Source: a virus
IMG/VR virus record: IMGVR_UViG_3300046786_000686
Span: 1-64,000 of that record
Length of the DNA stretch: 64,000 nucleotides
Reading direction: 5' to 3' (one strand)
How positions within the stretch are numbered: the first letter of the stretch is position 1; each line of letters opens with the position of its first letter. Made by a program: the position numbers and the translations under genes. The notes under the pieces were generated by a model. The model searched no databases. It saw only the letters and a list, made by a program, of their open reading frames with translations, and was not told the DNA's origin. Shown piece after piece: positions 16,432 to 17,516 of the stretch.

Positions 16432-16460
16432 GTCACGAAAGTGATAACGTTCTTTGAAAA
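16432..16460 (+). promoter_or_regulatory. rrn-like antitermination leader (boxB hairpin + boxA)
   Basis: GTCAC-GAAA-GTGAT hairpin followed by GTTCTTTGAAAA (16449-16460). Confidence 0.55.
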
Positions 16461-16462
16461 TA

Positions 16463-17349
16463 TTATTATCCATCCAATGTGGATTGTCTAAAGCTTCGGC
16501 TAAGGATTGGACACATTGGTAAATGATAGTCGGCCGCCTATGGTCGTTAAATAAACCGGGAAACCGGGATAAAGTGAATTACATTTTGTCAATGTAGTTT
16601 GCGGCTTCGCAAGGAGCTCGAGTAGGCAAGTAGGATATCATTAGACCTTGAGTACCGAGGGTAACACTGTAGGGGAACTGGTTTGATGACTAGGTGATGC
16701 AGGTCATTTAGTTGAGCTCGGAAGAGCAATAAGAATAACCTATAGGAATCAATTTTTTGCAAGAAGCATTCTTATCCAAGTTTGTTATTGCGGTTTCCAA
16801 TACAAGAGGGATCTTAAAGCCGAAAGGCAATGTCAGTGTACAAGTGGTGTTGTTACTGCACCGTAGATGAACCCACCAAGGTTTGTTTATGTAGAATTCT
16901 TGAAGTATGGAGGTAGGGATATCTCAGAGAGTAGTTGAGTATTGACTCGTCCAAAAGATGGGTCAGCTTAGTGGTAAGCCACTACTTTCATAATCTGCGA
17001 CTAATACCTTAATTTGCCTTTTTGATACGCAAATATCTAAGAAACAATTAAGCAAAAGCGCTTACCAGCTACCGACGAAAGGTGCCTACCTAGTACTGGG
17101 CTGTCCAGTGCCACTAATGATCGCAAGTCAACAGTGATTCGTCCGAAAGGTTTGTAGTCCCGCAAGGATTAATCAGCTCGGCAGAGTTGAACAGAATAAG
17201 TAAGATGAGAGTAGTCGAAACAAGTAGCTTAAAGAGTGGTGTACTCAAATCACCGGCATTGATGGGATACTTCTCAAAAGGAAGTGGACAAGAAGGGAAC
17301 CAATAATCCAACTAAAGATCCATCACTTAAACGTATAGTCTCAGCGTTT
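16463..17349 (+). ncRNA. Large structured ncRNA, GOLLD-like candidate (~890 nt; ends approximate)
   Basis: No + strand ORF of 60 aa or more; many stems capped by GNRA/UUCG loops (AGC-TTCG-GCT, CCGG-GAAA-CCGG, CTTC-GCAA-GGAG, GCTC-GGAA-GAGC, GCC-GAAA-GGC); CCAATGTG/CACATTGG helix; directly followed by a tRNA. Confidence 0.7.
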
Positions 17350-17363
17350 CTTTTTAACTAGAT

Positions 17364-17435
17364 AGTGGGATAGAGCAGTGGTAGCTCGTTGGGCTCATAA
17401 CCCAAAGGTCGGGGGTTCGAATCCCCCTCCCGCAA
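17364..17435 (+). tRNA. tRNA-fMet (CAT), initiator type; CCA not encoded
   Basis: Cloverleaf; anticodon arm TTGGG-CTCATAA-CCCAA with 3 consecutive G:C pairs; unpaired 1:72 (A:A); T arm GGGGG-TTCGAAT-CCCCC. Confidence 0.93.
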
Positions 17436-17483
17436 CAAAAAACTTTCTTTTCTGCTATGATTTTCATAGCTTGTGTGTGTGCG

Positions 17484-17516
17484 AAGGGCTGGTGTTTTCA
17501 CCGGCCTTTCCTTTTT
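17484..17516 (+). terminator. Rho-independent terminator closing the RNA operon
   Basis: AAGGGCTGGTG-TTTT-CACCGGCCTTT followed by CCTTTTT. Confidence 0.75.

Follow-up and report, generated by a model that had tools for sequence, protein, structure and literature searches.

The window analysed here, a stretch of 64,000 nucleotides (nt) taken from an IMG/VR virus record of 91 kb that is estimated to be about half complete, contains a long segment that was described, in an earlier note on this DNA, as a structured RNA of ~890 nt. That note suggested either a divergent GOLLD RNA or a new RNA class, and compared the region upstream with the leader of an rRNA (rrn) operon. Two questions are raised by this locus: what the RNA is, and how a phage would bring about synthesis of so long an untranslated transcript. 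GOLLD RNAs are among the largest bacterial and phage RNAs of unknown function, and the structure of a GOLLD cage has been solved. The features that we discuss below are collected in Table 1.

Table 1. Features of the stable-RNA unit, in window coordinates
Feature	Positions	Strand	Basis
Phage tmRNA gene, tag ANVDYSTEYFAVAA	15937..16282	+	Rfam RF00023, 102.2 bits; ARAGORN
Promoter-like repeat P1 (upstream copy): TTGCCT, 17 nt, TATATT	16278..16332	+	Direct repeat family D1, promoter scan
Promoter-like repeat P2 (downstream copy), 3' end TATCTTTA	16367..16421	+	Direct repeat family D1
Small 'boxB-like' hairpin, GUCAC-GAAA-GUGAU	16432..16445	+	Fold
BoxA-like word GTTCTTTGAAAA, predicted unpaired	16449..16460	+	Fold, conserved position
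Variable UUCG-loop hairpin, boxA to GOLLD P1	16462..16530	+	Fold, leader alignment A3
GOLLD 5' domain	16530..16926	+	env-38 start alignment, nhmmer homologs, compensatory pairs
GOLLD 3' domain	16927..17347	+	RF02032, 277.6 bits, cut-off 150, model positions 1-416 of 416, E = 3.9e-78
Initiator-type tRNA-Met(CAT)	17364..17436	+	Rfam (17364-17435), ARAGORN
Intrinsic terminator: 12-bp stem (17483-17510), 7 G-C pairs, T run	17483..17516	+	Terminator scan

Identity of the structured RNA

As had been stated for this region, no plus-strand open reading frame (ORF) of more than 39 aa is present from 16432 to 17347, and stems capped by GAAA, GCAA and UUCG loops are plentiful in the sequence. A cmscan search against Rfam, which the earlier note had proposed, returned the GOLLD family RF02032 over the full length of its model and 128 bits above the cut-off. 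The RF02032 model covers only the 3' domain of GOLLD, which is described as the universally conserved part of this RNA; in the cmscan alignment, the long-range helix of that domain (the square-bracket pairs of the Rfam consensus) is intact, with AGCUACCGAC pairing with GUCG...GUAGCU and with no mismatch flags. For the 5' half, we observed that the opening bases of the construct used for cryo-EM of env-38, as given in the supplement of the paper describing it, align at window position ~16531, and that an nhmmer search with the segment from 16530 to 16926 retrieved 14 homologs, all of which are GOLLD loci. Covariation among homologs, also proposed as a check, was found in this segment: in an alignment of 11 homologous sequences, 70 of the 110 predicted pairs of the 5' domain carry compensatory changes.

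The GOLLD family has been described as RNAs of ~830 nt with 5' and 3' domains, present in phages and near tRNAs (PMC12286853 and its preprint). In GOLLD env-38 the 5' domain comprises residues 1-420 and the 3' domain residues 421-833, and the RNA forms a 14-mer cage, seen at 3.0 A, of which the 5' domain makes up the cap (PMC12286853). Given the full-length Rfam match together with an env-38-like, covarying 5' domain, we regard the RNA described here as, almost certainly, a canonical GOLLD of the environmental type and an ordinary member of its family, with a structural RNA of ~818 nt (~16530-17347) preceded by a leader of ~105 nt. The structured RNA that had been noted is therefore present, with its extent corrected from ~890 nt to these values; it is GOLLD, as one of the two suggestions had it, and is neither divergent nor of a new class. 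That it might represent a new giant structured class, or a mere distant relative of GOLLD, could be argued from the position of its 5' half outside the Rfam model, and nothing else speaks for this after testing; with the Rfam match complete and that same 5' half alignable both to the beginning of env-38 and to 14 GOLLD loci, there is scarcely any probability left to it. We have rejected the new class on the RF02032 match, the env-38 alignment and the 5'-domain covariation.

The RNA of this phage is thus a routine member of the family. It shares with env-38 and RF02032 a full-length 3' domain, a 5' domain of the environmental type, a length of ~820 nt, a phage origin, a position beside tRNA-Met and a freshwater source, and we see no essential difference from them, the upstream leader being excluded from the env-38 construct. 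Assembly into a 14-mer nanocage has been established for env-38 only (Kretsch et al., Nature 2025, PMC12286853), and by homology the GOLLD RNA described here presumably forms a cage as well.

Gene order, host and transcripts

The GOLLD gene sits, on this freshwater phage contig, between the phage tmRNA gene, which is its upstream neighbour in a stable-RNA cluster, and an initiator-type tRNA-Met gene, so that the phage context near tRNA genes which is expected of GOLLD is found here: an IMG/VR virus record, tmRNA upstream and tRNA-Met 16 nt downstream. The order tmRNA-GOLLD-tRNA-Met is common to six close relatives (L068, L009, L058, L057, L004 and L038), and DNA of the window recurs in freshwater metagenomes. 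Bacterial initiator tRNAs lack a Watson-Crick 1:72 pair and carry an A11:U24 pair, and their anticodon stem has three G-C pairs at its lower end. In the ARAGORN cloverleaf of the tRNA-Met we observed an A1 x A72 mismatch, G29-G31:C39-C41 and A11:U24, which bears out the initiator assignment made earlier; position 1 is A, where C is usual. The gap to this tRNA, put at 14 nt in the earlier note, is 16 nt when measured from the Rfam-defined end of GOLLD at 17347. The terminator noted after the tRNA was located as a stem followed by a T run, with a weaker hairpin at 17454-17470 before it. Homologs usually have a tRNA gene (Met, Thr or Gly) that starts 3-18 nt after the GOLLD end, and this spacing makes it plausible that the 3' end of GOLLD would be released by RNase P. 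Directly after the terminator lies an ORF of 48 aa (17560-17706), rich in Lys, Arg and Thr and without a Pfam match; a Pfam search of the small neighbouring ORFs returned nothing.

The host of the phage, judged solely from the promoter type, the flanks of boxA and distant relatives, is probably a member of the Bacteroidota. The distant relatives are Flavobacterium phages, at 44% identity, and a phage with Microcystis as its recorded host, at 49%; ten large ORFs scanned against PHROG were uninformative as to the host. A search for RF02032 in a sample of 151 Bacteroidota genomes, from which absence from the phylum is not to be inferred, returned no match, and neither did one in Flavobacterium phage immuto 3-5A and Microcystis phage Mel-JY01, the cultured relatives nearest to this phage; no cultured model was therefore identified. 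By blastn against GenBank phages, a similar GOLLD was seen in two uncultured huge phages only.

Both the GOLLD body and the tmRNA are represented by exact-sequence contigs in four metatranscriptome runs, which come from four studies; it should be noted that these contigs, being assemblies, report on presence only and not on ends, strand or level. One tmRNA contig covers 15934-16280 and continues with a non-templated CA where the genome has AA, which fits CCA addition to a processed tmRNA. This contig also loops back to 15934, probably as an assembly artefact of a short abundant RNA. GOLLD-body contigs are deep and the flanking ORFs have little or no cover, a difference in contig depth that cannot establish abundance; the contigs begin at 16473, 16494, 16527 and 16541 in different runs, positions that do not give the true ends; and one X20 contig extends just 9 nt into the tRNA, which cannot establish co-transcription. 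The segment from 16339 to 16472, with P2, the hairpin and boxA, was covered by no metatranscriptome contig, and removal of the leader cannot be established from them. Accumulation of GOLLD as an abundant stable RNA is weakly supported by these contigs.

Promoter-like repeats and leader

The two tandem promoter-like sites that had been reported upstream of the RNA are real copies of a 55-nt repeat (P1 and P2 in Table 1), of which a third copy, at 15872-15926, precedes the tmRNA gene. The promoter core pattern occurs twice in the window and not at all in 100 shuffles, and the repeats can be read as TTG ... TAnnTTTA, which is near the Bacteroidota promoter form. The start site predicted from P2 lies a few bases upstream of the small hairpin. 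Of the six close relatives, L068, L009, L057 and L058 retain the downstream copy only, and L004 and L038 retain two. All three copies in the window precede stable-RNA genes, and this suggests a promoter type that is strong and dedicated to such genes. The tmRNA gene uses the same repeat without boxA, and boxA is therefore not part of the promoter.

Both the GAAA hairpin and the boxA-like word of the earlier note were recovered in our examination of the leader. Neither the single-sequence fold nor the consensus fold pairs the word. The UUCG hairpin after it has a conserved base (ATTATCC ... GATAAT) and an inner part that varies or is missing among homologs. Folding and assembly have been observed with an env-38 construct that begins at the equivalent of window position ~16531, which places boxA, with the leader hairpins, outside the known GOLLD fold. 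In a single window, about one match to the 12-mer is expected by chance when one mismatch is allowed, and one occurrence is thus not significant; the significance of the word derives instead from its conserved position among homologs.

Conservation of the boxA-like word among GOLLD loci

We collected a first sample of IMG/VR loci by a motif of the 3' domain; 23 were GOLLD by nhmmer, and all 11 that were re-tested with Rfam scored above the cut-off. Among the 22 loci with enough upstream sequence, the window included, a boxA-like word was present at the same place in 21. The pattern [GA]TTC[TA]TT[GAT]A lies 60-100 nt before the 5' domain in 19 of these loci, and two have the close variants CGTTCTTTAACA and GTTCTTAAAA; in the one locus without the word (L003), GOLLD directly follows a tRNA. 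All 14 distinct leaders in this sample have the form GTTCTTT(G/A)A without variation; two unalignable types of 5' domain are included, among them a group whose 5' domain cannot be aligned with that of the window. Against a motif background of 0.12 per kb per strand, this gives a binomial p of ~1e-13 to 1e-15.

A second sample of 59 loci was chosen independently, with a different 3' motif. The word was found on the sense strand in 44 of them, as compared with 6 of 59 for the antisense strand, and its positions cluster at -742 to -866, where that of the window is -835. Conservation of boxA upstream of GOLLD, another of the checks that had been proposed, is in this way observed in two samples (21/22 and 44/59 loci). 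The remaining loci of the second sample include six with one-base variants and five of high GC with a different layout. In the latter (L210, L213, L229, L233 and L278), which are virus contigs with a GC content of 0.60, a tmRNA and tRNAs are followed by GOLLD, and no GTTCTTT word is present directly upstream of it. These loci represent a second layout of the same stable-RNA island, which is probably actinobacterial. A mycobacterial GOLLD has been described among horizontally transferred tRNA genes, with its expression detected by Northern blot (PMC6582537); that locus resembles ours in having GOLLD among tRNA genes and differs in its high-GC context; in the high-GC IMG/VR loci, tmRNA and tRNAs lie directly before GOLLD and the GTTCTTT word is lacking.

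A hairpin of 4-7 bp ends 2-5 nt before the boxA word in 23 of 40 distinct leaders, and the stems of these 23 hairpins have 16 different sequences, so that the small hairpin covaries. The boxB-like hairpin is thus not universal among GOLLD leaders, as is also the case in rrn operons. Leader lengths range from 51 to 123 nt in the homologs, the distance from boxA to GOLLD P1 from ~12 to ~95 nt, and the distance from the promoter box to the word from ~5 to ~30 nt.

These observations bear on the idea that the word is a structural part of GOLLD, pairing with a distant segment or contacting another subunit of the cage. The word is co-transcribed with GOLLD and is invariant, and pairing of it cannot for that reason be tested by covariation. 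On the other hand, ~70 nt separate the equivalent position from the start, further downstream, of the construct that gave the 3.0 A 14-mer, the folds leave the word unpaired, and its spacing to P1 is far from constant. As described below, rrn leaders, in which there is no GOLLD, contain the identical word. We consider a structural role very unlikely. Pairing of boxA within GOLLD was also tried as a candidate and was rejected, since the env-38 construct is without boxA.

Comparison with rrn leaders

Antitermination in rrn operons is carried out by a complex of NusA, NusB, S10, NusG and SuhB, and boxA-dependent antitermination has mostly been studied in Proteobacteria. We fetched 120 Bacteroidota 16S starts and used the 100 that had at least 300 nt upstream. 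The 12-mer GTTCTTTGAAA was present within two mismatches in 72 of these 100 upstream regions, mostly at -80 to -200, and TTCTTTGA is among the commonest 8-mers upstream of Bacteroidota 16S; the window shares a run of 17 identical nt with one Bacteroidota rrn locus (L119). Of 85 Bacteroidota loci, 28 have a boxA copy no more than 60 nt downstream of a TAnnTTTG promoter box, and in half of the 28 a small hairpin separates the two. Judged by sequence, the promoter-hairpin-boxA architecture of these rrn loci is the same as that of the GOLLD leader. The rrn-operon-like leader proposed earlier is upheld to this extent: the tandem repeats are real, and the hairpin and boxA are conserved in position and match an element of Bacteroidota rrn operons.

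A nusB gene was found in each of five Bacteroidota genomes searched. Among 47 Bacteroidota loci, only 9 had the strict boxA motif in their 16S-23S spacer, and because of this rarity the identity of the leader element as boxA rests on its resemblance to the consensus of Escherichia coli and Bacillus subtilis. The rrn leaders of B. subtilis have a small 5' hairpin followed by AUGAUCUUUGAAA, which binds NusB, and the E. coli boxA consensus is UGCUCUUUAACA (PMC13753749, 2026). Outside rrn operons, boxA precedes suhB and CRISPR operons (as cited in PMC13753749) and, in phage T7, lies behind early promoters (as cited in PMC3709561).

Possibly, the word shared with rrn leaders, GTTCTTTGAAA, has a role other than that of a Nus antitermination site: it could be a ribonuclease processing signal, the binding site of another host factor, one by which stable-RNA synthesis is matched to growth, or an operator acting at the DNA level. 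Conservation alone is silent on what binds the word; the strict motif is rare in the Bacteroidota spacers, where the classical second boxA would be expected; and the conserved base of the hairpin after the word could be a processing site. Against this, the word matches the core, UCUUU plus an A-rich tail, of boxA sequences for which NusB binding has been demonstrated in E. coli and B. subtilis (PMC13753749), and its distances to the promoter box and to 16S both vary, which favours an element that acts at the RNA level independently of position. In our judgement, such another role is unlikely, although less so than a structural one.

Proposed mode of GOLLD synthesis

We propose that the stable-RNA unit of this freshwater phage probably makes its GOLLD through boxA antitermination of the host rrn type; with regard to the participation of Nus factors, the antitermination reading of the leader appears to us fairly likely. 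Transcription would start at the two tandem host-type promoters. The first ~30 nt of the predicted transcript contain the small hairpin and then the unpaired boxA word, GUUCUUUGAAAA, both of which are seen in the sequence. The nascent boxA would recruit NusB-S10, as in host rrn operons, and with NusA and NusG the RNA polymerase would be converted to a form resistant to Rho and to terminators, which could then complete the ~1 kb of untranslated and highly structured RNA. RNase P, in cutting at the 5' end of the initiator tRNA next to it, would free the 3' end of GOLLD, the leader would be trimmed off, and the strong terminator after the tRNA, also seen in the sequence, would close the unit. GOLLD would then accumulate as an abundant stable RNA and, by homology, presumably form its cage.

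No clear intrinsic terminator was found inside the GOLLD unit, and we assume for this reason that the benefit of boxA must be resistance to Rho, or else help with transcription speed or folding. The rrn antitermination complex has been proposed as a co-transcriptional RNA chaperone for rRNA. We would give an even chance to the broader proposal that GOLLD genes of Bacteroidota phages mimic the host rRNA operon, with full-length GOLLD dependent on the host Nus/rrn complex, which may help its folding and cage assembly in the manner of such a chaperone.

The likeness to a bacterial rrn operon consists of tandem promoters, a small 5' hairpin and an unpaired boxA word identical to that of Bacteroidota rrn leaders, followed by a long untranslated structured RNA and then a tRNA. 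The differences are that the cargo is a phage RNA, and that no second boxA was found in the GOLLD unit. Nor was a boxC, or a stem of leader and trailer for RNase III processing, apparent: when the sequence was read by eye, the leader and the 16-nt trailer did not look complementary, and the local hairpin (16462-16530) follows boxA instead. With the CRISPR, suhB and T7 systems the leader shares a boxA of host type that lies behind the promoters of untranslated or early transcripts and would, here too, serve escape from premature termination. Those systems belong to Gammaproteobacteria and are backed by genetic evidence, whereas the present one concerns Bacteroidota, the probable host phylum, and comparative evidence only. 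In a literature search whose coverage did not extend to the 2009 discovery paper, we found no paper linking GOLLD to boxA or antitermination, and no description of the upstream leader in the GOLLD literature examined.

The conserved leader with its host-type boxA suggests that GOLLD is produced in the manner of a stable rRNA, by means of a defined signal that can be mutated, and the biogenesis of GOLLD thereby becomes testable. If the proposal is correct, boxA-dependent antitermination extends to phage cargo in Bacteroidota, and there is a first handle on how GOLLD is made, with mutation of boxA as a simple genetic switch for the role of the cage in infection.

Other elements near GOLLD leaders

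Some GOLLD loci (L203, L206, L219, L230, L234, L250, L287 and L288) have two boxA words ~250 nt apart, near -1050 and -800; one of these may serve an upstream tRNA or small RNA, before which it would lie, and the other GOLLD. In L052 (8850-8970), L045 (6830-6950), L053 and L076, a conserved stretch of ~90 nt, CACACTACTGATT ... GAGTAGTATAAACGGAGTATCCTTAACAGG ... AAGTTTGG, lies between the promoter and boxA, and no Rfam family reaches its cut-off in this stretch. Finally, GATGAAAGATACTCGG recurs 20-120 nt before boxA in L204, L212, L246, L252, L052 and L045.
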